Source: Acidimicrobiia bacterium
Lineage (GTDB): Bacteria > Acidobacteriota > Vicinamibacteria > Vicinamibacterales > UBA2999
DNA: 64,000 bases
Direction: 5' to 3'
Assembly: GCA_016871275.1 (NCBI GenBank)
Contig: VFZG01000001.1
Location: forward strand, 42,334-106,333
Position 1 is the first letter of the stretch; every line of letters starts with the position of its first letter. A program made the translations under genes and the position numbers. The notes below the pieces were generated by a model. The model did not search any database. It had not been told where the DNA came from and was given only the letters and a program-made list of their open reading frames with translations. This document shows, piece after piece, positions 26,974 through 47,006 of the stretch.

Positions 26974-27266
26974 GAGGCAGCACTCCCGAAGTGGCGGGCC
27001 AGCAGCGTCCGCAGCGCCTGACGGGCGCGATGCAGCCAGGTTGAGAGCTTGGCGTGGCCTTCACAGCGATCGAGGCTGCGAAACGCGCTCATGAACGCGT
27101 CCTGCACGACGTCGCGGGCGTCTTCCTCGGACCCGACGATACGACGCGCGACCGCCAGCAGCCGGCCGCCGCAGGCACGGACGACCTGCTCGACGGCGGC
27201 CTCGTCGCCGGCGCGCAACTGCCCGATGAGCGTTGCTTCATCGTCGACAGGAGTCGCACTGGCCAA
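26970..27266 (-). CDS. ECF sigma factor remnant: region 2 only (apparent in-frame internal deletion)
   Basis: 98 aa with a TTG start. Region 2 is present (EDARDVVQDAFMSAFRSL...LSTWLHR) and is fused directly to the C-terminal tail ARQALRTLLARHF. There is no region 4 HTH. Confidence 0.6.
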   Translation of the reverse strand: MASATPVDDEATLIGQLRAGDEAAVEQVVRACGGRLLAVARRIVGSEEDARDVVQDAFMSAFRSLDRCEGHAKLSTWLHRARQALRTLLARHFGSAAS

Positions 27267-27414
27267 CGATCGGGCCGATCACAGGGGCAGGGCCGAGCCG
27301 GCACTGCGGTCGCGGGATGGGCGGCGAGGCCCCGTTGCGCCCGGCAGGCCGATTGGTGACCATGCTGGCGAACGACCATACGTAATATGCTGGCCAGTCG
27401 TAGATCAGCTGCCC

Positions 27415-28659
27415 ATGCGAACATCGAAGACCGCTCTCACACTTTGTGCCGGCATCACGACGCTGGCGTTCACGCTCACCTCGATGTCGGCCGCCCCGAT
27501 GGTGAGGGCGACGCCCGAGTCCGTGGGGATGTCCGCGGATCGCCTGCAGCAGGCGACGGCGCTGCTGCGCCAGTACGTCGCCGATCGGAAGATTATCGGC
27601 GCGGTCGCCGCGGTCGCGCGGCGAGGCAAGCTCGTCTATCTTGAGCCGGTCGGACTCCAGAGCCTCGAAACGAAGGCTGCGATGACCGAGCGCTCGCTGT
27701 TCCGCATCTACTCGCAGACCAAGGCGGTCACCGCGGTCGCAGTCATGATGCTGAGCGATGAGGGCCGTCTCTCGATCGACGAGCCCGTGTCGAAGTACCT
27801 GCCCGAGTTCAGGAGTGCGATGGTGCGGGACGGCGGAACGGGCGCGCCCCGGCGGCCGTCGCGCGAGATCACGATTCGAGATCTGCTGCTGCACACCTCG
27901 GGGCTGAGTCATCGCACGTCGGATCTCTATCGGCGGCTGCAGGTTCGCTCCCGCGCGATTGCGCTGCCGCAGTTGGTGACCAACATCACGAAGGCCCCGC
28001 TGCTCGAGGACCCCGGCACGCGTTTCCGGTACAGCGAAGCCACGACCGTCCTCGGGCGGATCGTGGAAGTCGTCACGACGCGGAGCTTCGATGCGTTCGT
28101 GACGGCGCGCATCCTCGAGCCGCTGGGAATGGACGATACGGCCTTCTGGGTCGAGGGAGATGCGGTCGCCCGCCTCGTCACGGTGTATCAGCGCAGCCAG
28201 GACGGCACGGTGGCTCCGTTCGAGATCGAGGAGGTGCCCTTCACGCAGAAGCCCGCGCTGATGGAGGGAGCCGTGGGGCTCGTGTCGACCGCCGAGGACT
28301 TCCTGAAGTTCAGCCAGATGCTGCTGGGTCAGGGCCAGCTCAATGGCGTCCGGTTGCTGAAAGCCGACACCGTGGCCGCCATCACCGCCAACGGGCTGCC
28401 AGACGCGGTGCTCCTCACGAAGGGCAACGGCGCGGTGGGCTGGGGCCTGGCCAACGTCGACGTGGTGGTGAAGCCTGGTTCGCGCGGCTATCTCACAAAC
28501 GTCGGTGAATACGGGTGGGACGGCTCCGCCGGGACGTTCTTCGCCGTTGATCCCTCGCGGGAGCTGGTCGTCGCACTGATGACGCAGAACCTGCCAGCCA
28601 ACCCCGATGGTTTGCGTCAGAAGTTCAAGGCAGCGGTTCTGCAATCGATCGTTGAATGA
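27415..28659 (+). CDS. Serine hydrolase, beta-lactamase/PBP4-like family (exported)
   Basis: Signal peptide MRTSKTALTLCAGITTLAF and SxxK motif SQTK. Start at ATG 27415 inside the longer track ORF. Confidence 0.85.
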   Translation: MRTSKTALTLCAGITTLAFTLTSMSAAPMVRATPESVGMSADRLQQATALLRQYVADRKIIGAVAAVARRGKLVYLEPVGLQSLETKAAMTERSLFRIYSQTKAVTAVAVMMLSDEGRLSIDEPVSKYLPEFRSAMVRDGGTGAPRRPSREITIRDLLLHTSGLSHRTSDLYRRLQVRSRAIALPQLVTNITKAPLLEDPGTRFRYSEATTVLGRIVEVVTTRSFDAFVTARILEPLGMDDTAFWVEGDAVARLVTVYQRSQDGTVAPFEIEEVPFTQKPALMEGAVGLVSTAEDFLKFSQMLLGQGQLNGVRLLKADTVAAITANGLPDAVLLTKGNGAVGWGLANVDVVVKPGSRGYLTNVGEYGWDGSAGTFFAVDPSRELVVALMTQNLPANPDGLRQKFKAAVLQSIVE

Positions 28660-28796: not shown

Positions 28797-29098
28797 ACCC
28801 CTCGCGCCCGCCCCGCCTCGTCGTGGATCGTGTTTGCGGCCGCGATTGGCTGCGTGAGCGGCCTGCTGGTGATGGCTACGATGGTCGTGATTATCCCGTC
28901 GGGCGTCGCGATTGTCACCGAGCCGTTACTCTCGGCCGCTTCTGCGAAGGTCGAGGTCGAACCCACCACCAGGGAAGAAGCCACGCCGGCAACGCGCCGC
29001 GGGACACGCCGCATCTTCACTTCGCGATTGTCAAGATGACCGGCGGGAAGAAGTGGTGGCAGGGAACCGCGATCGACCCTTACTCGGCCCTGAGGTAG
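28797..29098 (+). pseudogene. Probable remnant of a membrane-anchored M23/LytM peptidase (TM segment + C-terminal tail, frame change near 28980)
   Basis: Frame 0 (28830..): VFAAAIGCVSGLLVMATMVVIIPSG is TM-like, with codon-position GC of 62/48/78 %. A different frame (28982..29098) encodes HAGNAPRDTPHLHFAIVKMTGGKKWWQGTAIDPYSALR, the typical end of the M23 domain. The HxxxD motif and the rest of the domain are absent. Confidence 0.35.
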
Positions 29099-30072
29099 GT
29101 GGCGCGCGTCTCTTCGAGGCTCTCGAGGATCCGGGCCGCGAAGGCTGCGGGCGCGATGACCTTCGCCGCCGGCCCGAAGCCCATCACCCACGCCTGCAGC
29201 TCCCAGTCAATCACCACATCCATCGTCAGGCGAAGGCGTCCGCCGGGCAGGTCATCGATCGTCTGCGAGGCATGAAACTCGCGCTCGCGCACGTAGGGCG
29301 CCTCGGCCGCGGTGAACTCGATCACCACGCGCTCGGGTGTGCCGGAGAAGGCACCGAGTGAGTGCGCGAACACGTCGGGTGCGGATTCAACGGGGTTGAA
29401 TCCGTCTTCGAGCCCAACAGCCTGCTCGATGCGCTGCGCGGCGAACGTGCGCATTTCGCGGTACTCGGGCACAAACGCCTGCAGGTACAAGCCGCCCTGC
29501 GCGTAAGCCAGGCGATATGGCTCAACGATGTAGTCCTTGACCTGCTGGCTGGAGAAGGAGTGATAACGCAGGCGCACGCGGCGACGGCCCAGGATGGCCT
29601 GCATCAACCTATCGATGGCCTTTGCCGAGCCAGCGGCGCGAGGGCGGGACGCGTGCTCCTTGGCGCCCATCGCATCGGGAAGGCTCTCGATGAACTTCCA
29701 CATGGGCGGCGGCAGCGCATCATAGAGCTTGTCGAACGCCGAGGCCAGGCTGTCGCGGAACGGCCCGCCCGCCACGGCGGTCAGCACCGTCCGGCTCAGA
29801 TGCAGCGCGCAGAGTTCGGAGAGTGAGAAACCTGCCGCGGCCACGCCGCGGAAAACTTCCCGATTGAGGACAAACACGGTTTTCCCGTCCCGTTTTGAGG
29901 TCTCAATAGGGAAGCCGGCCTGCGCCAGGGCGTCGAAATCGCGGCGGATGGTCCGTTCGCCGACACCATCCCCGGCTTCCTGCTGGGCCTCCGACAGCGT
30001 CAGGCCGCGGGAGCGGCCCTCCAAAGCCAGCAAAATGCGCCATTGCCGTACGATTTCAGTGTGTCTCTCCAT
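29080..30072 (-). CDS. HTH-WYL-WCX transcriptional regulator (PafBC-like architecture)
   Basis: Starts at ATG 30072 (MERHTEIVRQWRILLALE..., HTH). WYL domain RVRLRYHSFSSQQVKDYIVEPYRLAYAQGGLYLQAFVPEYREMRTFAAQRI, followed by a C-terminal extension domain. The upstream 124 codons of the track ORF have low GC3. Confidence 0.85.
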   Translation of the reverse strand: MERHTEIVRQWRILLALEGRSRGLTLSEAQQEAGDGVGERTIRRDFDALAQAGFPIETSKRDGKTVFVLNREVFRGVAAAGFSLSELCALHLSRTVLTAVAGGPFRDSLASAFDKLYDALPPPMWKFIESLPDAMGAKEHASRPRAAGSAKAIDRLMQAILGRRRVRLRYHSFSSQQVKDYIVEPYRLAYAQGGLYLQAFVPEYREMRTFAAQRIEQAVGLEDGFNPVESAPDVFAHSLGAFSGTPERVVIEFTAAEAPYVREREFHASQTIDDLPGGRLRLTMDVVIDWELQAWVMGFGPAAKVIAPAAFAARILESLEETRATYLRAE

Positions 30073-30199
30073 TGATCGGCGCCTGCCGTGCCGTTGCCGG
30101 ACGACGGAGTCAGGGAACCCCATAGTACGGCACAACGTATGCAAAGGTGTGCAGTCGAGTGTAGTTCCAGGGAACCTGACGCCGCGGCAGCCCGAATGA

Positions 30200-30228
30200 C
30201 CTGACCTGTCAGGGGCGCCGCGTAAGGT
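30200..30228 (+). promoter_or_regulatory. Palindrome plus RecA-NDp-like promoter upstream of the small Cys4 ORF
   Basis: CCTGAC-CT-GTCAGG at 30200..30213. TGTCAGGG-N8-TAAGGT at 30207..30228. The -10 ends 6 nt before ATG 30235. Confidence 0.35.
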
Positions 30229-30234
30229 GACGTT

Positions 30235-30492
30235 ATGACGATTCGCCTCCGATTTCGCCGTCCTGCACCCGTCGCTCGTAGGGCCTGCAAGCACTGTGAG
30301 TACCGCCGTAGGCTGTTCCGCCAGGAAGGCATCCTGAAGTGGGACCCGTACTATGCGCTCTGCTACAAGTGCTACCAGCGCTATTTCAACCGCGCGCAGG
30401 GCGAACCGGCATCGCCGGTTGCAGCGGCCAGTGCCGCTGATCACCGTCGTAGAACACCCGCTCTAGAAACAGGCCTGATGCCGGCGCGGTAA
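30235..30492 (+). CDS. Hypothetical Arg-rich Cys4 (zinc-ribbon-like) micro-protein
   Basis: 85 aa: ...RRACKHCEYRRRLFRQEGILKWDPYYALCYKCYQRYFNR.... Codon-position GC over the first 55 codons is 56/49/76 %. The tail overlaps the 3' end of truA antisense by 107 nt. Confidence 0.4.
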   Translation: MTIRLRFRRPAPVARRACKHCEYRRRLFRQEGILKWDPYYALCYKCYQRYFNRAQGEPASPVAAASAADHRRRTPALETGLMPAR

Positions 30493-37211: not shown

Positions 37212-37288
37212 CGGGGCGTGGCTCAGCTTGGTAGAGCGCTCGGTTCGGGACCGAGAGGCCGCTGGTTCGAATCCAGTCGCCCCGACCA
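37212..37288 (+). tRNA. tRNA-Pro (anticodon CGG), CCA encoded
   Basis: Hand-folded cloverleaf: acceptor CGGGGCG/CGCCCCG, D stem GCTC/GAGC, anticodon stem CTCGG/CCGAG with loop TTCGGGA, T stem GCTGG/CCAGT with loop TTCGAAT; 77 nt. Confidence 0.9.
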
Positions 37289-37303
37289 CTATTCAAAGGC
37301 ACG

Positions 37304-37327
37304 AGGCCCGGGTCTCCGGGCCTTTTG
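37304..37327 (+). terminator. Intrinsic terminator after tRNA-Pro
   Basis: AGGCCCGG-GTCT-CCGGGCCT followed by TTTTG. Confidence 0.6.
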
Positions 37328-37393: not shown

Positions 37394-38785
37394 TCAGGGC
37401 AAGCCGACAGCCACCAAGTGGTTGCGGGTGCGGAACAGAAGCGTGCCGTCGGAGATCGCGGGCGTGGCCATCGCGACTTCGCCGAGCGGGTTCGTCGCCA
37501 GCAACTCGTAGGTTGGACCGGCCTTGACCACGTAGACATCGCCATCTTCGCTGGTGAAGTAGATCCGTCCGCCCGACGCCACCGCTGACGCGGAGAAGCC
37601 GGTCTTGCCGTCGCCGAGCCGCGCCTGATAGTGGCGGGTGCCGGTCTTCGCATCGAACGCGCCCAGTACGCCGTTGTCGCGGCACACGTAGAGAATGTCG
37701 CCGACGACGATGGGCGTCTGCATGTAGCCGCCGTCGCGCTGGTAGCTCCACGCGATGTGCGCGTTCGACGATTCACCGTCCTTGAGCGAGATGTCGCCGG
37801 TCGCCGTCGGCTTGATGGCATAAATCGGCGCCATCTTGCCGTGTGCGTTGGTAATGAACACCAGCCCGTGCGCCGTGATCGGCGTGGGCACCGGAATATC
37901 ACCGCCGCCGGTCATGCGCCACACTTCCTTGCCGGTTTCGAGGTCGTAGCCGCCAATGTGCCTCCAGCCGTTGACGATCACCTGGTCGCGGCCGTTCATC
38001 GAGACGATGGCCGGCGTGCTCCACGTCGGCACATCGGTCCTCGGCGTCCGCCACAACTCCTTGCCCGAGCGGACGTCGAATGCCGCCACGAACGAGCCCT
38101 TCTGGACGTCAGCCTGCAGGATGACGCGGCCATTGTGAATCACGGGGGAACTGGCAAAGCCCCACTGCGCGTCCGGCACCATGAAAAACCCGGAATCGAG
38201 CGTCCCGAACTCCTTCTGCCAGAGCCGCTCGCCGCTCATCGAGTACGCATACATGCCTTCCGAGCCGAACATCGCGACAATGTGTCGGCCATCGGTGGCC
38301 AGGGTGGAGCTGGCGTGCGTGGACTTCGGATGGCGCTTGATGATCGGCACGCCGCGCTTGGCCACGCGCTCCCAGCGCGGCTTGCCCGTACGCTTGTCGA
38401 AGCAGGCCACGATGAACTTGTGCTCGGTTTGATCGAGCACCGAGCCGATGTCGCCGTAGAGACCCACCTTCAGCTGCGGGTCGGGCGTGCCGCTGATGGC
38501 GCTGGCGGTGCAGACCTGGTCGCCCCACACCACCGGGCTCGAGTGGCCCAGGCCGTTGACCGGCACCTTCCACTTGACCAGCCTGGACTCCGGCACACTC
38601 CACTGCAGCGGCAGCGGCTTGGCCTCATCCACGCCGCGTGCCGCAATCCCGCGGAAGCCGGGCCAGTCAACGCCGGCCCGAGGAGCGGATTGGGCCGAAG
38701 CGTTGCCGGCCAGCAGCCATACGGCGGCGGCGAACGCCGTGAACCCCTTGAATGTCCTGAACGATTGCACCGGTGAACCCTTCAT
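37394..38785 (-). CDS. Exported PQQ-like beta-propeller repeat protein (BamB-like fold)
   Basis: Start ATG 38785 (MKGSPVQSF...signal peptide...ASAQ) overlaps the upstream stop (ATGA). Repeated propeller blades with W/G-rich motifs. Confidence 0.7.
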   Translation of the reverse strand: MKGSPVQSFRTFKGFTAFAAAVWLLAGNASAQSAPRAGVDWPGFRGIAARGVDEAKPLPLQWSVPESRLVKWKVPVNGLGHSSPVVWGDQVCTASAISGTPDPQLKVGLYGDIGSVLDQTEHKFIVACFDKRTGKPRWERVAKRGVPIIKRHPKSTHASSTLATDGRHIVAMFGSEGMYAYSMSGERLWQKEFGTLDSGFFMVPDAQWGFASSPVIHNGRVILQADVQKGSFVAAFDVRSGKELWRTPRTDVPTWSTPAIVSMNGRDQVIVNGWRHIGGYDLETGKEVWRMTGGGDIPVPTPITAHGLVFITNAHGKMAPIYAIKPTATGDISLKDGESSNAHIAWSYQRDGGYMQTPIVVGDILYVCRDNGVLGAFDAKTGTRHYQARLGDGKTGFSASAVASGGRIYFTSEDGDVYVVKAGPTYELLATNPLGEVAMATPAISDGTLLFRTRNHLVAVGLP

Positions 38786-39555
38786 GATGGATACCAATTC
38801 GCGAGACGCACCTCGATCCCGTGACGGGACAGTGCATCCGTAAGTTCCTTGAGCCCGCGGGTCGACGGCACCGGCCGCTTGCCGCCGGCAGGAACGGGCC
38901 GGACCCATTCCTGATCGTAGTGATAGGGGTAGACAACCTTTGGCTTGATGGCCGTCAGGCACTCGATCGCCGCCGCCGGTTCCATGCGCTGGAGCGGCAC
39001 GTTGATCGCAAAGAAGATCACGTCAATGCTGCTGGCGCCCCGCACCTCCGGCACACACTCGGTGACGCCGGCCACATAGATCCGTTTGCCGCCCAGCGTG
39101 ACGATGTATCCGTTCGCTTCGCCTTTTGGATGAAACGGCTCGCCGGGCTTGATGTCGTAGGCGGCAGTCGCCTCGATCTTCACGCCGGCGATCTCGCGAG
39201 TGTCGCCGTTCATCATCACGATGCCGTCCGGCACGCCCTTCAGGCCGTTCGACGCCACCACCACCGGCGCGCCGGGTTTGCGAACATGCGCGATGGCCTT
39301 CGGATCGAGATGATGCCCGACATCGTCCGTGATGAGGATCAGGTCCGCGGGCTTGCCCTTCGACAGATCGCTGACGCTCCAGGGATCGATGCGAACCACC
39401 GTGCCGGCGTGTTCGAGCTGAATGTCGGAGTGCGTGAAGGTCGTAATGTCAACCTGACCAACCTGATCGGTGGCCGCCAGCAGCGAGCCGCAGCATACGG
39501 CAGCGATCAAAGACACTTGACGGCCTGATGGCCTGATGGCCTGATGACCCGTCAT
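38782..39555 (-). CDS. MBL-fold hydrolase-like exported protein
   Basis: ADLILITDDVGHHLDP (degenerate HxHxDH region) and overall UlaG/Lactamase_B_3-like length. ATGA overlaps on both sides. The alternative start is GTG 39516. Confidence 0.55.
   Translation of the reverse strand: MTGHQAIRPSGRQVSLIAAVCCGSLLAATDQVGQVDITTFTHSDIQLEHAGTVVRIDPWSVSDLSKGKPADLILITDDVGHHLDPKAIAHVRKPGAPVVVASNGLKGVPDGIVMMNGDTREIAGVKIEATAAYDIKPGEPFHPKGEANGYIVTLGGKRIYVAGVTECVPEVRGASSIDVIFFAINVPLQRMEPAAAIECLTAIKPKVVYPYHYDQEWVRPVPAGGKRPVPSTRGLKELTDALSRHGIEVRLANWYPS
39522..39545. repeat. Perfect 8-nt tandem repeat x3 (GGCCTGAT; ATCAGGCC on the gene strand)
   Basis: Read directly at 39522-29, 39530-37 and 39538-45. It lies in codons 4-12 of the MBL-like ORF. 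Confidence 0.9.
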
Positions 39556-41525
39556 GGCAGCCGGTAGGCGATCAACTCGCCGGGCTTGATCGAGCTGCTC
39601 GAGGCCACCACCACATACTGCTTGCCGTCGAGCATGTAGCTCATCGGCGCACCGGTTTGCGCGCCCGGCATGGCCACCGCACCGACATCAGCGCCAGTCC
39701 GTTTGTCATACGCGCGCAGCATAGCGCCGCGCGATCCATCGGGCATCGTCACCGTGCCGCCTTCGCCCGAGATCACCAGCGTCTTGGTGACGAGGACGCC
39801 GATGCCGCCCGAACTGCCGCCGGCGCCGGCCGGGCGCCCGGTGCGCGGGATGCTGAGGCCCTTCAGCGCCGGATTGTTCCTGATCGCGTCGGGTGTGTCA
39901 CCGTGAGCGACCTGCCAGACCATCTCGCCCTTGTTCAAGTCGATCGCGCTGATGCGGCCATACGGCGGCTTGATGAGCGGCAGGCCCCGCACTGACACGC
40001 CGCCCAGCCCGCCGTCTTCGAGCAGCGCGCCGTTGTTGATGTAGGCCATGTCCGATCGCTTGGGGTCGTTCTCCATCGACAGCACGCGCAGCAGCGCGTG
40101 CGAGTAGACATACATCGTGCCGGTCTCCGGATCGAACGCTCCGCCCGGCCAGTTCGCGCCGTTGGGGATGAACATCGTACCGAGCTTGCCGCCCTCACCT
40201 CGCGCAATCGGCGGCGTGTAAATGGGCCCGTGCTTGTAGCCCTGCAGAATCTTCAAGCCCTCGGCGCGCAGTTCGGGCGTGAAGTCGATCACCATGTCCT
40301 CGGTGAAGCCACTTCGTTCGAACGCCGGCGGCCTGGTGGGGAAGGGCTGCGTCGGTGAATACCACTCACGCGGCAACGTCCCTCGTTCGACGGGGCGCTC
40401 CTCGATCGGCCACACCGGCTCGCCGGTCTTGCGATCGAACACGAAGGTGAAACCCTGCTTGGTCGGCTGCGCGACCGCGGCAATGTTACGGCCGTTGACC
40501 GTGATGTCGACCAGCATTGGCGCGCACGGGATGTCGTAGTCCCAGATTGGGTGGTGCACGGTCTGGAAGTGCCAGATGCGCTTGCCGGTCTGCAGATCGA
40601 CCGCGACCAGGCTCGCGCCGAAGAGATTGTTGCCGGGCCGGTGACCGCCGAAGTAGTCGCCGGTCGGATCTTCCACCGGCAGGTACGCCATGCCGAGGTT
40701 CTCATCGACCGCAATCTGCGACCACACACCGGTATTGCCGGTGTACTCGGCCGACTTCTCGAGCCAGGAGTCATGCCCAAACTCCCCGGGCTGCGGGATG
40801 GTGTGGAAGATCCACAGCCGCCTGCCGGTCCGGGCGTCGAAGCCGCGGATGTAGCCCTTGGTGTTCCGCATGCTCCGCGGGGCCTGGCCCGATCGGTGCG
40901 AGGCGCCGATGATGACGACGTTCTTCGCGACGACCGGCGCGCCATTCCACGCCACCTCGCCTTCGATCGGATCGATGTCCTGATCGTTGTCCTTCTTCAG
41001 GTCAACCACGCCGTTGACGCCAAAGTCCTTCAGCGGAATACCGGTCTTCGCGTCCAGGCCGACCAGCTGATACCCGATCGTGACGTAGAAAATGCGCTCG
41101 TCACCCTTGCCGTCGGTCCAGTAGCCGACACCGCGTCCCGACAGCCGGCGCGCGGAGCGCTCCGCCCGGCGGCCCTCCTCGAGGCGATGCATCCACAGCA
41201 GCTCACCGGTGGCGGCATTGAGCGCCACGGCATTGCGGTGCTCGCCGGCCGTGGCATACAGCACGCGGCCAATCATCAGCGGCGTGGTCTGCAGGTTGTA
41301 GTCCGGACGGGCGCCGAAATTGTCGGTGCGGAACCGCCAGGCCACCTCGAGCGCATTGAAGTTCGCCGCGGTGATCTGATCGAGCGGCGCGTAGCGGGTG
41401 ACGCCGAGATCGCCGCCCCAGGTGCGCCACTCGCCGTCCGTCGTGCCTCGCTGGGCGGACGCTGTCGAAGTCAGCAGTGAGAAGAGAGAAGGGAGAAGCA
41501 GGAAAGCCGACGCGTAGCTTCTCAC
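39552..41525 (-). CDS. PQQ-dependent dehydrogenase (8-bladed quinoprotein, glucose/alcohol dehydrogenase superfamily), exported
   Basis: GEWRTWGGDLGVTRYAPLDQITAANFNALEVAWRF start of the propeller, HHPIWDYD active-site region, 657 aa. Start at GTG 41525 (VRSYASAFLLLPSLFSLLTSTASA signal peptide). Confidence 0.85.
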   Translation of the reverse strand: MRSYASAFLLLPSLFSLLTSTASAQRGTTDGEWRTWGGDLGVTRYAPLDQITAANFNALEVAWRFRTDNFGARPDYNLQTTPLMIGRVLYATAGEHRNAVALNAATGELLWMHRLEEGRRAERSARRLSGRGVGYWTDGKGDERIFYVTIGYQLVGLDAKTGIPLKDFGVNGVVDLKKDNDQDIDPIEGEVAWNGAPVVAKNVVIIGASHRSGQAPRSMRNTKGYIRGFDARTGRRLWIFHTIPQPGEFGHDSWLEKSAEYTGNTGVWSQIAVDENLGMAYLPVEDPTGDYFGGHRPGNNLFGASLVAVDLQTGKRIWHFQTVHHPIWDYDIPCAPMLVDITVNGRNIAAVAQPTKQGFTFVFDRKTGEPVWPIEERPVERGTLPREWYSPTQPFPTRPPAFERSGFTEDMVIDFTPELRAEGLKILQGYKHGPIYTPPIARGEGGKLGTMFIPNGANWPGGAFDPETGTMYVYSHALLRVLSMENDPKRSDMAYINNGALLEDGGLGGVSVRGLPLIKPPYGRISAIDLNKGEMVWQVAHGDTPDAIRNNPALKGLSIPRTGRPAGAGGSSGGIGVLVTKTLVISGEGGTVTMPDGSRGAMLRAYDKRTGADVGAVAMPGAQTGAPMSYMLDGKQYVVVASSSSIKPGELIAYRLP

Positions 41526-41544
41526 TTTGCTCTTCTCCCTTCTC
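41486..41544 (-). promoter_or_regulatory. Inverted repeat able to sequester the SD/start codon of the PQQ dehydrogenase gene
   Basis: GAGAAGGGAGAAG (41486..41498, + strand) and its exact reverse complement (41532..41544) flank GTG 41525. Part of a purine-rich AGTGAGA 14-mer tandem array spanning 41518..41562. Confidence 0.5.
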
Positions 41545-41556
41545 ACTTCTCTCCTC

Positions 41557-43686
41557 TCACTTCGCCAGCGGGTCCGGGCGCAGCTGCACATGATAGACCT
41601 TGCTGGTCGTGCCCTTGCCCGTTTCCATGTGGTACGGCGTGCGCGTGCTGATGGTAGCCCACAACCCGCGGCCCTTCCAGCCGGCCTTGGGATCGTCAAT
41701 GCGGCCGTCCATCCACTTCGTATAGAAACCCGTGGGGTAGGGGATCCGCAGCACAACCCATGTGCCGTCCTTCAGTGCGAGCAAGCCCTCCGACGCGTTG
41801 CCGGTGTTGATTGGGATGTTCTCGCCAAGACCGAGTGCGCCGAACTGATCGACCCAGGTGTAATAGCTTCCTTCCACGCTGCCGCCGTCACTGACGCCGC
41901 GGAACTGGGGCAACGGCTCCGTGTACAGCGTCCACCCTTCGGGGCAGTGCTGGCCGGTGGCGGTCGGGCCGTTCAGCACCTTGCACTTCCGCCGATCGAA
42001 GCTGGCCAGGTGGCCGCTGGCCAGCGCCGCCCAGAACACGCCGTTGCGATCGACGTCGCCGCCGCGCGGGGAGAAGCCGGGCCGCTTCGGATCGCGGAAC
42101 GGCGGCTCGTACACTTCCGCAAGCGCGGTCTCCGCCGGATTGGCACCGGGAACCAGGCGCACCACCTGGCCGGGATACCCCAGCACCGTGCCCCAAATCG
42201 ATCCGTCCGGAGCCGGTGCCACTGAATAGAAGGCCGCGCCGAATCGCTTGTCCCTGGCCGGATCGACGGGCTCGTTCGGCTCCACGAACGCGTCGCGCCG
42301 GCCGTTGCCGTTGGTATCCATGATCAGCGGCGTCCAGCCCTGCGACCGCTGCACGTCGCCGGTCTCATCGAACAGCTTGCGGTTCAACCAGCCGACCACC
42401 TGGCCGCCACCGCTGGTCCACAACGTGTGATTGGCGTCCTCGGCAAACATCAGGTGATGCGTGCCGAAGCAGGTTTCAATGTGCGTCAGCTTTTTCGCCG
42501 CCGGGTCATAGACCTGCAAATGGCGCCCGCTTCGCTGGATCGGAAACAACTTTGCCGACGGATGGCTCGATCCTTCCCTGCACCACGCGGGATTCTCCGG
42601 CCCACGCACCGCCGAGGTCAGCCACAGCCGGCCCTTCTCGTCGAGCATCGGGTTATGCACGTTGTTCTTGCTCGTCCAGATCACTTCATCGCCCCAGTAC
42701 GGCGACGGCGCGGGCATCTTCGGATTGGTGGGCGGCGTATTCGGATCGCCGACCGTGAGCGGGATGCGATCGATCGAATGCGTCTTCGGGTCGAGAACCG
42801 GCACGTAGTCGGAGCTGAGTTCGAGCGCGCCATAAAGCGGGCCGTGCGCATTGACGGTCGGATTGCGCCGATCGGTCGACACGACGTCGTGCAAGTAGGA
42901 TTTCGGATCGGCCCAGTCCCACATCGTGATGACGACGTTGCGCTCCACGCCCTGGGGGCGCGGCGGCGCCGGTGGCACCTCCCCCCGGTTGACGCGGTCT
43001 GTCCAGTCGGCAAAGAGCAGCAGGGCGCGCTCCTTGCCCATGTTGTTGACGCCGTTCACCATCTGCCCGCCCGCCTGGCCCGAGGCGATGCGGCGCTCCC
43101 AGGCCTGCACGAGCGAGGGAAAGGTGCCGAGCTCCCTGGGAATCTCGCGCGTGCCCTTCGTGCCGAGCTGGTGGCACGCCGTGCATCCGCCCGACTTTAC
43201 CATTCGCACCCAATCCTGCTGGCTGCGGACGTTGGGCGAAATGCCGTTGCCTTGCGGCCCGGTGCCGGGAAATTCGCCGGCTTCGGGAACACGCAGCATC
43301 GACAACCAGTAGCCGGCTGGATAGTACTGCGCGGCCGCATGATCGTTGGGCGCAATCACCGCCGTCAGATTCACTGCCTGCCCGGGCACCGTGTTCACGC
43401 GCGGGGAATCCACCAGCCCATAGCCGCGAACGAACACCGAAAAGTTCGCTTTCGGAAGATCGGGCACGAGGTAGCGGCCCTGGGCGTCGGTGACGACGAT
43501 TTTCACGTACGGCGTTGGCAGGTCCTTCGTCTCGGCGATCACCCAGACGCCGGCCTCGGGCCCCTTGCTGCTCCGCACCACGCCGGCAAGATCGTCGGCG
43601 TCGGCCGCTGGCGCCGGTGGCTGTCGCGCGCTGAGGGTTGCGACGGCGACACCACTTGCCAGGACAACCAGGAATATCCGCTTCAT
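41557..43686 (-). CDS. Exported CarboxypepD_reg-like domain + c-type heme (CxxCH) + large C-terminal beta-rich domain protein
   Basis: Start ATG 43686 (MKRIFLVVLASGVAVATLSA). VVTDAQGRYLVPDLPKANFSVFVRGYGL (carboxypeptidase-regulatory-like fold). GGCTACHQ heme c motif. Confidence 0.65.
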   Translation of the reverse strand: MKRIFLVVLASGVAVATLSARQPPAPAADADDLAGVVRSSKGPEAGVWVIAETKDLPTPYVKIVVTDAQGRYLVPDLPKANFSVFVRGYGLVDSPRVNTVPGQAVNLTAVIAPNDHAAAQYYPAGYWLSMLRVPEAGEFPGTGPQGNGISPNVRSQQDWVRMVKSGGCTACHQLGTKGTREIPRELGTFPSLVQAWERRIASGQAGGQMVNGVNNMGKERALLLFADWTDRVNRGEVPPAPPRPQGVERNVVITMWDWADPKSYLHDVVSTDRRNPTVNAHGPLYGALELSSDYVPVLDPKTHSIDRIPLTVGDPNTPPTNPKMPAPSPYWGDEVIWTSKNNVHNPMLDEKGRLWLTSAVRGPENPAWCREGSSHPSAKLFPIQRSGRHLQVYDPAAKKLTHIETCFGTHHLMFAEDANHTLWTSGGGQVVGWLNRKLFDETGDVQRSQGWTPLIMDTNGNGRRDAFVEPNEPVDPARDKRFGAAFYSVAPAPDGSIWGTVLGYPGQVVRLVPGANPAETALAEVYEPPFRDPKRPGFSPRGGDVDRNGVFWAALASGHLASFDRRKCKVLNGPTATGQHCPEGWTLYTEPLPQFRGVSDGGSVEGSYYTWVDQFGALGLGENIPINTGNASEGLLALKDGTWVVLRIPYPTGFYTKWMDGRIDDPKAGWKGRGLWATISTRTPYHMETGKGTTSKVYHVQLRPDPLAK

Positions 43687-43720
43687 TGCTGTGTCCTCAA
43701 CAGTCCGCCGGAGGCGGAGG

Positions 43721-45196
43721 CTACCGCTTCGGTGCGTCGTTGGTCGAGCGAGTGCGGCGCTTCGCGAGCTCCTCGTGGTACTGCTCGTCGCTGAGAAACG
43801 CGATGTCCGTCCATCCGTGGCCCATTTCATCCATCGTCCGCGATCCCCATCCAATCCATGCAGTGGGATCCGGATTGTGCCGGTTGTTCGCCGTGTTGTC
43901 GTGGATAGACACCGTGTGCAGGATCGTGCCAGCCGGAAAGAGGTGCGGCACCTTGTACTTGTAGGTGACCTGCCAGTTCTGTTCGTAGTGCGTGGCATTG
44001 GTCAGGATCTCGCGGCGGCCGTCGGGATGAATCGCCTCCAGCAGCATCTTCGAGCCCCGGAAGTGCATGTGCGGCTGGAAGCTGATGATCAGCGCCGGCT
44101 TCGGCAACGGGAAGTAGCGGTCGTGCGTCACGACGCTGTTCGGGGGAATGCTCAGGAACGCGGCACTGTGCAGCGGGTTTTCGGCCACCAGGGCGCCGGT
44201 CGGCATCGCCGGCTCGTCAATGGCGATCTTGTGTCCCGCACGCAGCAGCAGGTCTTCGACGCGCTCGCGATTCAGCACCCAGTCGTTGCCGACGCCGGTG
44301 CGGATGCGGTGTGACGTGACGACGTGTTCGGGCTGGTAGCCTTTTGGATAGAACTTGACGCCCACGCGCATGCGGTCGAAGGCCTCTTCACCGTACGGGT
44401 GATAGTGGCCTTCGAAGCGGAAGATCGATCCCTTGGGCAGCATCTTCGACGTGCCGTCGGGGAAAATGTCCGCGTCGTTGCCCGCGCCGTACTCGATCAA
44501 GTCCATCGAGTTGCCGACGTTGGAGCCCATGTTGAGGCCCAGGGCGGCGCGATCGACGTCCTCGGGCAGATCGACATAGACGTGCGCATGGTGCACGGCG
44601 CGCCACGCATCGGGAATGATCTGCACCCATTTCACATGGCGATCCTCGGTGAGCTTCGGATCGACGTGCTCTTCAGGAATGAAGTCCGGACCGGTCGCCG
44701 GAATCCTGAATCCCTTCTCCATGCGCACGATGAGATCGGGCTCACCGTAGGTCCACTCGGTGCTGGGCGGAAACACGCGCGGCGCCGGCGCATCGGCCCG
44801 GTTGCCTTCGGGTGCGCCCGCATCGATCCAGGCCGCGATGGTGGCGACTTCCTGGTCGCTCAGCGACGGATCGTTCGAGTACTCGCCGATGCTGCGATCG
44901 ATGTGCCAGGGCGGCATCTCGCGATTGGTGACCTTGGTCTTGATCGATCGCGCCCAGGGGCGCGCCTCGGCGTAGGTCAGCAGCGACATCGGCGCCGGCG
45001 TACCGGGCCGATGGCAGGACTGGCAGGATTTCTGGAGAATCGGCAGGACATCCCTGCTGAATGTCGGCGCCGATTGCCTGTTCTCCGTCGCGCCGGGCGC
45101 GGAGGCGGCGGCATGGGTGACCGACCGGGCCGGGAAGAGCAGGCTGAGGGCAAACGCCGCGACGCTGACACCGGCAATCCGCAAAATGGTGACCAT
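43721..45196 (-). CDS. Membrane-anchored/exported c-type heme domain fused to a copper type II ascorbate-dependent monooxygenase-like (PHM/DBH-like) domain
   Basis: Start ATG 45196, preceded by GGGAGG. SCQSCH heme motif. His pattern HHAH...(63 aa)...HYH and HMH...(77-80 aa)...MDEM resembles the CuH/CuM ligand spacing of PHM as I recall it. Confidence 0.5.
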   Translation of the reverse strand: MVTILRIAGVSVAAFALSLLFPARSVTHAAASAPGATENRQSAPTFSRDVLPILQKSCQSCHRPGTPAPMSLLTYAEARPWARSIKTKVTNREMPPWHIDRSIGEYSNDPSLSDQEVATIAAWIDAGAPEGNRADAPAPRVFPPSTEWTYGEPDLIVRMEKGFRIPATGPDFIPEEHVDPKLTEDRHVKWVQIIPDAWRAVHHAHVYVDLPEDVDRAALGLNMGSNVGNSMDLIEYGAGNDADIFPDGTSKMLPKGSIFRFEGHYHPYGEEAFDRMRVGVKFYPKGYQPEHVVTSHRIRTGVGNDWVLNRERVEDLLLRAGHKIAIDEPAMPTGALVAENPLHSAAFLSIPPNSVVTHDRYFPLPKPALIISFQPHMHFRGSKMLLEAIHPDGRREILTNATHYEQNWQVTYKYKVPHLFPAGTILHTVSIHDNTANNRHNPDPTAWIGWGSRTMDEMGHGWTDIAFLSDEQYHEELAKRRTRSTNDAPKR

Positions 45197-45231
45197 GAGG
45201 CCTCCCAGAGTTAAGGCATACTCTAGCATCT

Positions 45232-46008
45232 ATGCCTGTCTTGCCGAAGCGCCTGAGCGGAGGCGGAAGACGCCTCGCGGCCTGCGTGCTGCTTGGTTTC
45301 GTGGTCATCGGCGCCAGACCGTCGGCACAGCAGAACCAACCCATTTACCCCGCCTACGACGGCTTTCTCAAGAACCCCGACGGCAGCTACACCCTGGCCT
45401 TTGCGTACTTCAGCCACAACGCCGATCCCGTGACGATCGCGCCGGGCGCGGGCAACTCCTTCGCGCCGGCGCCAGGCGACCGGATGCAGCCGACGACCTT
45501 CAAGCCGGGGCATTGGCGCTTCCAGTGCGTGATGGTCGTGCCCGCGGACTTCGACGGCAAAATGCGGTGGTCGCTGACCTACGGCGGCGTGACCACCGGC
45601 ACCAGCGAGCGCATGCTGCAGTCGAACTGGAACCTGGTCGAGGGCGCCGCCCAACTGGCGAAGATTGATTTCGCGAAGGTGCCGAAAGGTGTGTGCCTGA
45701 ATCAGCCGCCGACCGTGCGCGTGCTCGGCGTGGTTGCGAATCCGAAGACGCCGCCCACGCTGAAGGCGAGTCTGAACGAAGAGCTCAACCTGTTCGGCAG
45801 CGCGCACGACGAAGGCCTGCCCCGCGGCAAGGGGCTGGTCGTCGAATGGAAGCTGCTGGCGGGACCCGGCACTGTGACGTTCACGATCCCCGGATCGGCG
45901 CGCACCAAGGCGCGCTTCTCGGCTCCGGGCATCTACGAGCTCGAGCTCACGGCAACGGATTCCGAGTTTACCCGCAGCACTCGCGTCCATGTGAGTGTCG
46001 GCTCGTGA
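45232..46008 (+). CDS. Hypothetical exported protein with C-terminal Ig/PKD-like domain
   Basis: Signal-like N-terminus LAACVLLGFVVIGARPSAQQ. C-terminal beta-sandwich-like segment VEWKLLAGPGTVTFT...YELELTATD. Confidence 0.5.
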   Translation: MPVLPKRLSGGGRRLAACVLLGFVVIGARPSAQQNQPIYPAYDGFLKNPDGSYTLAFAYFSHNADPVTIAPGAGNSFAPAPGDRMQPTTFKPGHWRFQCVMVVPADFDGKMRWSLTYGGVTTGTSERMLQSNWNLVEGAAQLAKIDFAKVPKGVCLNQPPTVRVLGVVANPKTPPTLKASLNEELNLFGSAHDEGLPRGKGLVVEWKLLAGPGTVTFTIPGSARTKARFSAPGIYELELTATDSEFTRSTRVHVSVGS

Positions 46009-46022
46009 GGTAGCATTCCAGG

Positions 46023-47006
46023 GTGAGTTCCCGTGCGCCGGGCCTGGCGCGTCTCATCACCACACTGGCGGCCATCGTCGGCGTCGTGCTGCTGGTCGTT
46101 ACCGTGCGGCGCGTCGGCGGATGGACCGCGGTCGTCGACGGCGTCGCCAGCATTGGCTGGTGGTTTATCGTGGTGGTGCTGCTGGGCGCGTTCCGCATGG
46201 CCTGCCGCACCCGCGCGTGGATGATCGCGGCCGACGAGCCGGGGCTGCGCTTCGTCGATGCCTTCAAGGCGTGGATCGTCGGCGATGCGATGGGCAACCT
46301 CACGCCGCTGGGACTGCTGGCCAGCGAGCCCACCAAGGTATTGATGGTCCGCACCAGGATCTCGACCGTCACCAGCATTGCGTCGGTCACCATCGAGAAT
46401 GCGTCGTACACGGCGTCGGTGCTGGCCGTGCTGTTGCTCGGCACGTGGCTGTTCCTGCAGCGCGCCAATGTCCCGCCCGGACTCGAGCAGATCTCGGAAG
46501 TGATCGTCGCCACGGTCGCCCTCGTCGCCGTTGCCGGGGTCTGGGCAGTTCGCGCGCGGCCGGCCGTGCTGTCGCGCCTCGGCCCGCTGGTCGCGCGGCT
46601 GGCGGGGAAGTCCGATGCGCCGGCTGACGCGATCAAGGAAGTCGAAGCACGCATCTACGCGGTGCCGCAGTGGCCCGGCACCCGAATCGCGCGACTGACC
46701 GCGTGGGAGGTCCTGTTCCACCTGGCGGCGATCGCCGAAGTGTGGGTCGTGCTGCGGCTGCTGGTGCCCGACATCACGATTGCCGAAGCCTTCATGCTCG
46801 AGAGCACCGGCCGATTCGTCATCGTGGCGTTCAAGTTCGTCCCGTACCGGCTCGGAATCGACGAGGCGGGTTCCGGCGCCGTCGCCACCGTCCTCGGGTT
46901 GCCACCCGCCGTCGGCGTCACGCTGGCCCTGGTCCGCCGGCTGCGCATCATCGTCTTGAACGCGGTGGGATTGATTTCAATGATTCAAGGGCGTCACGGA
47001 CGTTAG
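46023..47006 (+). CDS. Lysylphosphatidylglycerol-synthase-TM-like (flippase-like, UPF0104) membrane protein
   Basis: Eight predicted TM helices, GTG start, and conserved-looking GDAMGNLTPLGLLASEPTK loop. Confidence 0.65.
   Translation: MSSRAPGLARLITTLAAIVGVVLLVVTVRRVGGWTAVVDGVASIGWWFIVVVLLGAFRMACRTRAWMIAADEPGLRFVDAFKAWIVGDAMGNLTPLGLLASEPTKVLMVRTRISTVTSIASVTIENASYTASVLAVLLLGTWLFLQRANVPPGLEQISEVIVATVALVAVAGVWAVRARPAVLSRLGPLVARLAGKSDAPADAIKEVEARIYAVPQWPGTRIARLTAWEVLFHLAAIAEVWVVLRLLVPDITIAEAFMLESTGRFVIVAFKFVPYRLGIDEAGSGAVATVLGLPPAVGVTLALVRRLRIIVLNAVGLISMIQGRHGR

Follow-up and report, generated by a model that had tools for sequence, protein, structure and literature searches.

Separable modules for a predicted cytochrome c-copper monooxygenase fusion, a heme c-propeller protein and a PQQ dehydrogenase in one locus of a probable Vicinamibacterales genome

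Introduction

Positions 37394 to 45196 of a 64,000-nucleotide stretch of contig VFZG01000001.1 (the whole stretch is referred to as the window in the rest of the text) contain five tightly spaced genes, A to E, coding for periplasmic redox-type proteins, in which two genes for proteins with c-type heme motifs directly precede a gene for a dehydrogenase dependent on pyrroloquinoline quinone (PQQ). Do these genes encode one dedicated electron-transfer chain, as a preliminary description of the sequence had suggested, or has the locus brought together parts that also function separately? The gene neighbourhoods of relatives lead us to lean, with slightly more confidence than doubt, towards a modular locus of three separable modules with heme-mediated coupling. 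The genes concerned are the following.

43721..45196, minus strand: gene A, 491 aa, exported predicted cytochrome c domain fused to a PHM/DBH-like binuclear copper monooxygenase core
41557..43686, minus strand: gene B, 709 aa, CarboxypepD_reg immunoglobulin (Ig)-like domain, helical heme c domain and beta-propeller
39552..41525, minus strand: gene C, 657 aa, soluble periplasmic eight-bladed PQQ-dependent dehydrogenase of the glucose/quinate-dehydrogenase type
38782..39555, minus strand: gene D, 257 aa, exported metallo-beta-lactamase (MBL)-fold protein (Lactamase_B_3)
37394..38785, minus strand: gene E, 463 aa, exported BamB-like (PQQ_2 repeat) beta-propeller
45232..46008, plus strand: divergent partner gene of A, 258 aa, exported, beta-rich N-terminal domain and C-terminal PKD/Ig-like domain
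37212..37324, plus strand: tRNA-Pro(CGG) and GC-rich hairpin with a T-run, the downstream boundary of the five-gene block

Organization of the locus

The open reading frames of genes A to E and their spacing agree with the preliminary description, with intergenic gaps of 34 (A-B), 31 (B-C), −4 (C-D) and −4 nt (D-E). Gene A starts with an ATG preceded by GGGAGG, B with an ATG preceded by GAGGA, and C with a GTG preceded by a purine-rich Shine-Dalgarno-like stretch. No terminator-like site above the shuffled-sequence expectation was found between the five genes, and a promoter scan of the locus returned nothing meaningful, the two weak sites inside C being at about the level of shuffled sequences. 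The five genes probably form one transcription unit. All five proteins start with a hydrophobic N-terminal segment (read by eye), in keeping with the export or membrane anchoring ascribed to them earlier, and the Pfam and NCBIfam assignments likewise agree with the domains first proposed, the matches of A and B being sub-threshold.

Downstream, the block ends at the tRNA-Pro (37212-37288, plus strand) and the hairpin beside it. Upstream, it is limited by the divergent PKD-like gene, whose start codon is separated from that of A by 35 nt (45197-45231), compared to approximately 30-60 nt in relatives. Given this distance, either both promoters lie inside the coding sequence of the neighbour or the mRNA leaders are very short.

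Gene content of the locus in relatives

To compare gene content, we carried out three independent neighbourhood surveys seeded with A, B and C, respectively (individual loci are designated by L numbers). For the A-seeded survey, 80 GTDB species genomes were compared with all window proteins using tblastn, and the 62 loci with at least 8 kb of sequence downstream of A were counted. They carried the following gene sets.

A-B-C-D-E: 8 of 62 loci
A-B-C-D: 6 of 62 loci
A-B-C-E: 1 of 62 loci
A-C-D-E: 1 of 62 loci
A-C-D: 9 of 62 loci
A-D: 1 of 62 loci
A-C: 9 of 62 loci
A alone: 27 of 62 loci

Gene C was found downstream of A in 34 of these loci, while the divergent PKD-like gene adjoins A in 58. This gene is the most constant partner of A, yet it falls outside the limits (37394-45196) that the preliminary description had drawn around the cluster and had been overlooked. 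The five genes do not behave as a conserved operon, since the same set is not kept beyond the shared flanks and six other combinations were observed.

The other two surveys gave the same mixed picture. Six locus look-ups seeded with C (L164-L169) revealed A-C-D in L164 and L167, A-C-D-E in L169, A-C followed by a sulfatase-MBL fusion gene and ThuA in L166, B-C-D-E without A or the PKD-like partner in L168, and C-D-E with no adjoining heme gene in L165. Among the 80 metagenome loci seeded with B (56-87% identity), A, C and D stand beside B in the closest locus only (L084); the 79 others have no A, D, E or PKD-like partner near B, and in three of them a PQQ-like gene only distantly related to C (26-43% identity) lies a few kb from B. 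Clustering of the neighbours of the 80 B homologs revealed no recurrent partner.

These data bear directly on the possibility that the five genes encode one obligatory pathway, in which both heme proteins would be the fixed chain for the quinoprotein, with D and E as essential accessories. The tight spacing with its two ATGA overlaps favours such a pathway, as does the recurrence of the complete five-gene order, which we found in eight species-level genomes, in L015 and in the two large contigs L001 and L002. Against this stand the low count of complete sets in the A-seeded survey, the existence of A-C-D, A-C, B-C-D-E, C-D-E and A alone, and the fact that B relatives at 56-76% identity never adjoin A, C, D or E. 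Synteny therefore largely refutes the obligatory pathway, which we regard as very unlikely.

The mixed gene sets rather indicate that the five-gene form is one combination of three modules: A with its divergent partner, B, and C-D with or without E. Two units are stable, namely A with the divergent PKD-like gene, and C-D, which are sometimes fused. The preliminary description had seen no obvious role for the MBL-like protein in known quinoprotein systems; D turns out to be the most constant neighbour of C, and a 933-aa fusion of the two (P0392, L009:13680-16477) is found in one genome. A sequencing artefact could account for this fusion, which is taken from a long-read assembly.

In most C-seeded loci the slot that holds these modules is flanked by BNR/sortilin and LPG-synthase genes on one side and by SurE/NfeD/Band7 genes on the other; the exception is L164, which lies beside quinohemoprotein amine dehydrogenase genes. 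The slot gains and loses unrelated genes, including a molybdo-enzyme gene, toxin-antitoxin pairs and a GGT-like gene. The molybdo-enzyme gene (Ald_Xan_dh_C/MoCoBD, approximately 814 aa) lies between the LPG-synthase and PKD-like genes in L001 (4617-7061), L002 and L167. Its absence from the window (46009-46700) indicates that the slot is variable.

Gene A codes for a predicted cytochrome c domain fused to a PHM-like core

The predicted domains and ligands of A, all on the minus strand, are listed below.

44792..45064: cytochrome c domain, approximately residues 45-135, a three-helix segment in the structural model
45011-45025: heme motif CQSCH (C58xxC61H62), with candidate axial Met94 in MPPW
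43787..44749: PHM-like two-domain core, approximately residues 150-470
44588-44593 and 44405-44407: CuH-type ligands H202/H203 and H264 (HH...H pattern)
44063-44071 and 43823-43825: CuM-type ligands H376/H378 and M458 (HxH...M pattern)

Profile searches gave a match of A to Pfam Cytochrome_CBB3 (E = 4.6e-4, 20.9 bits, under the cut-off of 27), a match to Cu2_monoox_C (18.7 bits, under the cut-off of 23) and none to the Cu2_monoox N-terminal domain model. No NCBIfam model and no solved homolog was found for A by sequence, and PDB sequence and profile searches with A, B and the PKD-like partner returned only a PKD domain and weak Vgb-lyase and SdrD matches. The fold was recognized from the AlphaFold (AF2) model of A (pLDDT 73, the core mostly 75-95). 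When this model was compared with the PDB using Foldseek, the 31 best matches were all PHM or DBH entries (Foldseek probability 1.0, approximately 350 aligned columns), with target-normalised TM-scores of approximately 0.5-0.6 for PHM and 0.35-0.38 for DBH. By this comparison the model contains the two beta-sandwich domains of the PHM fold.

Conservation singles out the same residues. No variation was seen in C58xxC61H62, M94, H202, H203, H264, H376 or H378 across 89 orthologs and 19 paralogs (29-41% identity). M458 does not vary among the orthologs either and occurs in 17 of 17 paralogs covering the position, two truncated paralogs being devoid of the region. The paralogs vary at nine further His positions where the orthologs show no or almost no variation. 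The CxxCH motif with a conserved distal Met predicts a class I c-type cytochrome, and both the CuH and the CuM ligand patterns of a binuclear copper monooxygenase are present in the sequence of A.

The association with a PKD-like protein extends to the paralogs: in L036, L044, L046, L049, L064, L073 and L080, PKD-like paralogs (26-29% identity) adjoin A paralogs. We also observed a second type of A paralog (approximately 29-31% identity; stop-to-stop open frames of 694-739 codons) in L035, L037, L041, L046, L049 and L061. These proteins (for example L035:7732-9012, minus strand) have the same cytochrome c domain and PHM-like core, followed by a C-terminal region that looks TPR-like by eye, and retain all heme and copper ligand positions. 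No relevant publication came up in literature searches for this cluster or for bacterial PHM/DBH homologs linked to cytochrome c.

Gene C codes for a soluble quinoprotein of the glucose dehydrogenase type

The product of C matches Pfam PF01011 over its full length (model positions 1-595, E = 4e-175, 584.5 bits compared to a cut-off of 26.7), and close relatives are annotated in public records as 'quinoprotein glucose dehydrogenase'. Its match to the NCBIfam model of membrane glucose dehydrogenases, TIGR03074, reaches 364.8 bits (cut-off 832.65) and starts at model position 145; a signal peptide takes the place of the membrane/ubiquinone domain. C is a soluble member of this known quinoprotein family, with PQQ and metal binding predicted from its residues. 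D329 (40539-40541, minus strand, the catalytic Asp), D331, K356, W268 and T288 align with D466, D468, K493, W404 and T424 of Escherichia coli Gcd. In an alignment of 42 Acidobacteriota sequences (41 orthologs and one 42% paralog), D331, K356, W268 and T288 are present in all, and D329 in 41.

Could C be an "empty" quinoprotein homolog that binds no cofactor, a type proposed for certain Acidobacteria without PQQ synthesis, in which case the cluster would not depend on PQQ? C does give a weak match to TIGR04528, the model of acido-empty-quinoprotein group A. Furthermore, as claimed earlier, the window has no recognizable pqq genes: none was found in Pfam scans of its open reading frames of at least approximately 190 aa, the short pqqA and pqqD not being scanned. 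However, the TIGR04528 score (218.9 bits) is far under the cut-off of 650 and lower than that of the glucose/quinate dehydrogenase model, and none of the catalytic residues (Asp, Lys, Trp and Thr) is missing from more than one of the 42 sequences. In addition, Vicinamibacteria have been reported to possess PqqU, a PQQ importer, without PQQ synthesis (PMC12124388), so the absence of pqq genes from the window is not unusual. We consider an empty quinoprotein highly improbable.

C carries the DxD motif (D329-Y-D331) that is also found in E. coli Gcd. A 2026 preprint interprets this motif as lanthanide-binding and reports that eight-bladed "PQQ-GDH" genes (GDH, glucose dehydrogenase) containing it are abundant in genomes of soil phyla.

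Association of heme proteins with PQQ dehydrogenases

Lacking a membrane/ubiquinone domain, C needs another electron acceptor. The c-hemes of A and B are suggested for this role since their genes recur just upstream of C, with 4-nt stop/start overlaps between A and C in L166 and L169 and between B and C in L001 and L002, and since A paralogs also lie beside other PQQ dehydrogenases. In L061, L062 and L064 the PQQ dehydrogenase adjoining an A-family paralog is a different one, fused to a cytochrome; these loci are independent instances of an association between PQQ enzymes and the A family. In L064 (13819-18739), a gene for a 706-aa quinohemoprotein (N-terminal cytochrome c and PQQ propeller) lies directly upstream of the A paralog, after which comes the PKD-like paralog, all co-directional. 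In L040, an A-family paralog lies within approximately 1.7 kb of an alcohol dehydrogenase-type PQQ gene that is paired with an MBL gene. Within L040:4148-20917 there are two genes of the A family, four for PQQ dehydrogenases and a second PQQ-dehydrogenase/MBL pair, whose MBL member belongs to a different Pfam family (Lactamase_B).

The dedicated chain of the preliminary description survives these comparisons in part. The missing ubiquinone domain of C and the recurrence of heme genes upstream of it uphold the idea of heme acceptors, but the idea of the five genes as a conserved unit does not stand, given the small number of complete loci and the occurrence of C-D-E without A or B (L165) and of B-C-D-E without A (L168).

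Alternatively, the neighbours could be coincidental, the variable slot having gathered unrelated exported redox genes that may be co-transcribed but share neither electrons nor a substrate, with the cytochrome of C encoded elsewhere. All modules do occur independently, and between the same housekeeping flanks the slot exchanges other genes, as described above. Yet the A-C and B-C overlaps point to translational coupling, PQQ dehydrogenases of another subfamily likewise have A-family paralogs as neighbours (L061, L062 and L064), and C and D are fused in P0392. Coincidence is a possible explanation that we find doubtful.

We favour three separable modules with heme-mediated coupling, against which several observations nevertheless weigh. 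The Pfam matches of A are all sub-threshold, and its heme and copper binding is predicted from sequence only. In C, H262 and H775 of E. coli Gcd are not kept, and the proposed metal-ligand region of Gcd (D354/N355) does not align. In L019-L023, A and C are separated by a gene on the opposite strand whose N-terminal sequence is GGT-like. As the flanking housekeeping genes are common to all close relatives, part of the synteny reflects common descent. Moreover, since each module is also found alone (C-D-E in L165, A in 27 of 62 loci and B in 79 of 80), no partner is obligatory. Finally, the mechanism given below is a proposal at every step.

Gene B codes for a heme c-propeller protein

The product of B, encoded on the minus strand, comprises three parts.

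residues 33-110: Ig-like CarboxypepD_reg domain, a sub-threshold Pfam match
residues 115-250: helical heme c domain, with CTACH (C168xxC171H172) at 43171-43185
residues 251-709: beta-propeller, from the AF2 model

The AF2 model has a pLDDT of 89, and its propeller gave only generic structural matches. No Pfam cytochrome domain matched B. The family is large, with 6152 cluster representatives at E <= 1e-3, and at least 90% of the sequences in a diverse family alignment carry the CxxCH motif. Some members weakly match the Vgb-lyase and SGL models. We considered whether B could be a CuZ- or cd1-like metallo-propeller; the family alignment contains no conserved His cluster and does not support this assignment. 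The relatives of this heme c-propeller protein are, as a rule, encoded by solitary genes. Tandem duplicates of the family occur in L145 (10100-14521), L163 (9810-14542) and L080 (1582-6186).

Genes D and E

D matches Lactamase_B_3 with 49 bits (cut-off 24), and its closest solved relative is PDB 3kl7 (E = 3e-36). Instead of the canonical HxHxDH metal motif, it carries TDDVGHHLD. The likely metal ligands D77, D78, H81, H82, D84, H142, C167, H212 and D214 are each found in at least 95% of 33 aligned sequences. D was also considered as a candidate PqqB and rejected, as it has no match to the NCBIfam PqqB model; its sole NCBIfam match, under the cut-off, is PRK00685 ('metal-dependent hydrolase'). 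In the sulfatase-MBL fusion of L166 (8977-11013, 678 aa), which precedes ThuA, the MBL part is D.

E consists of PQQ_2 (BamB-like) repeats according to Pfam. It is optional and, where present, shares 78-90% identity with its relatives. Its conservation usually exceeds that of the other four proteins (mostly 83-90% identity, compared to 72-88% for C and 52-82% for D). An identification of E as BamB was rejected because its scores of 58.6 and 51.4 bits are under the equivalog cut-offs of 285 or 423, and BamB chains of the PDB match a partial stretch only. Its TIGR04528 score is 34.1 bits, under the cut-off of 650.

Proposed mechanism

The five exported proteins, whose genes are probably co-transcribed, represent one lineage-specific combination of modules in a variable slot between housekeeping genes. 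In the mechanism that we propose, C, loaded with scavenged PQQ, would oxidise a periplasmic alcohol or sugar and, having no quinone site, would pass the electrons to c-type hemes. The heme domain of A may accept them and reduce the CuH and CuM sites, in place of the ascorbate of the animal enzymes, and reduced A could then drive the O2-dependent hydroxylation of a substrate. B may serve as another heme acceptor or act as an enzyme in its own right. D might act on the product or substrate of C, for example by hydrolysing a lactone or an ester.

A more far-reaching proposal, which we put forward as speculative and rather unlikely, is that the A family constitutes a new class of cytochrome c-driven bacterial binuclear copper monooxygenases that have a PKD-like partner and are fed by periplasmic PQQ dehydrogenases. 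In such a reductant-neutral couple, hydroxylation (RH + O2 + 2e- -> ROH + H2O) would be followed by quinoprotein oxidation of the product or a co-substrate, which would return 2e-, so that no external reductant would be needed. The substrates could be glycans or other polymers, by analogy to lytic polysaccharide monooxygenases (LPMOs) working with a PQQ pyranose dehydrogenase. Hints of a carbohydrate context are the sulfatase-MBL fusion with ThuA (L166), TonB-type outer-membrane proteins (L164 and L165) and the BNR/sortilin protein beside the locus.

Comparison with known systems

C resembles the membrane quinoprotein glucose/quinate/shikimate dehydrogenases (E. coli Gcd, TIGR03074) over the whole periplasmic eight-bladed PQQ domain, with 29% identity to Gcd, but the N-terminal five-helix membrane/ubiquinone domain of Gcd is absent from C. 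Pairing of a quinoprotein with a cytochrome is a known design: operons coding for a quinoprotein and a dedicated cytochrome c include MxaF-MxaG, XoxF-XoxG and ExaA-ExaB, and quinohemoprotein alcohol dehydrogenases are also known. By analogy, the present locus sets a periplasmic PQQ enzyme beside c-type heme proteins that may be able to accept its electrons. It differs from these systems in that its heme domains are not small carrier cytochromes but parts of fusion proteins, with a copper core in A and a propeller in B, that the adjacency is not universal, and that C belongs to the glucose dehydrogenase branch, not to the methanol/ethanol branch. The elements that appear to be new are the fusion of cytochrome c to a PHM-like core with its constant partner, the heme c-propeller family of B, and the repeated occurrence of PQQ dehydrogenases in pairs with MBL-fold proteins.

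Copper monooxygenases of the PHM and DBH type are familiar from animals, where they depend on ascorbate. A shares with these noncoupled binuclear copper monooxygenases (PDB 1phm, 6nck and 4zel) the two-domain fold and the HH...H and HxH...M patterns at similar spacing. Sequence identity is 10-17%, and A has an insertion of approximately 50 residues (300-347, low confidence). Whereas the animal enzymes use ascorbate, DBH having a DOMON domain, A is a bacterial, periplasmic protein with an N-terminal cytochrome c domain. A large bacterial family in which both copper sites are kept and a c-heme is fused at the place of the electron donor would show how such chemistry is powered in the periplasm. 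Such a family would, moreover, give access to a new group of oxygenases from Vicinamibacterales, the source of thousands of relatives from soil and other environmental metagenomes.

Fungal LPMOs are activated by a PQQ-dependent pyranose dehydrogenase (CcPDH) or by cellobiose dehydrogenase. The logic may be the same, as a sugar dehydrogenase with a heme relay would feed a copper oxygenase, but the folds differ throughout (six-bladed AA12, cytochrome b and mononuclear histidine-brace copper), and any action of A on polysaccharides is hypothetical. D, for its part, resembles the 'putative metal-dependent hydrolase' 3kl7 and is to be compared with the UPF0173 MBL-fold proteins, from which it differs by having TDDVGHH in place of HxHxDH.

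The locus further illustrates how "glucose dehydrogenase" quinoproteins without a membrane domain, numerous in soil phyla according to the 2026 preprint, may be wired to acceptors. It also draws attention to the repeated pairing of PQQ dehydrogenase and MBL-fold proteins. For annotation, the locus is a caution that tight packing of genes in one genome does not amount to a pathway.

Genomic context and source organism

The window has a G+C content of 65%, and the remainder of it contains housekeeping genes (FtsK, RNase J, LexA, RecG, Rho, ClpB, DnaJ, MutS, TrkAH and others). A gene for a WYL/WCX-domain regulator (29080-30444) and a serine beta-lactamase-family gene (27091-28659), located upstream of the region, have no apparent link to the locus.

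Protein A is identical to MBM3806643.1, and B is near-identical to MBM3806642.1. Hundreds of close relatives and nearly all of the 80 genome loci belong to Vicinamibacterales or Acidobacteriota. For this reason, the Acidimicrobiia label of the source metagenome-assembled genome is probably a binning or classification error, and the organism is probably a soil-dwelling member of Vicinamibacterales (Acidobacteriota). Other carriers of this Vicinamibacterales-type locus are similarly labelled Acidimicrobiia, Cyanobacteriota or 'uncultured cyanobacterium', Bifidobacterium or Gammaproteobacteria, and are probably mis-binned or mislabelled; the oddly labelled records are L004, L006, L009, L011, L012, L022, L032, L039-L041 and L049, together with the contig of the window itself.

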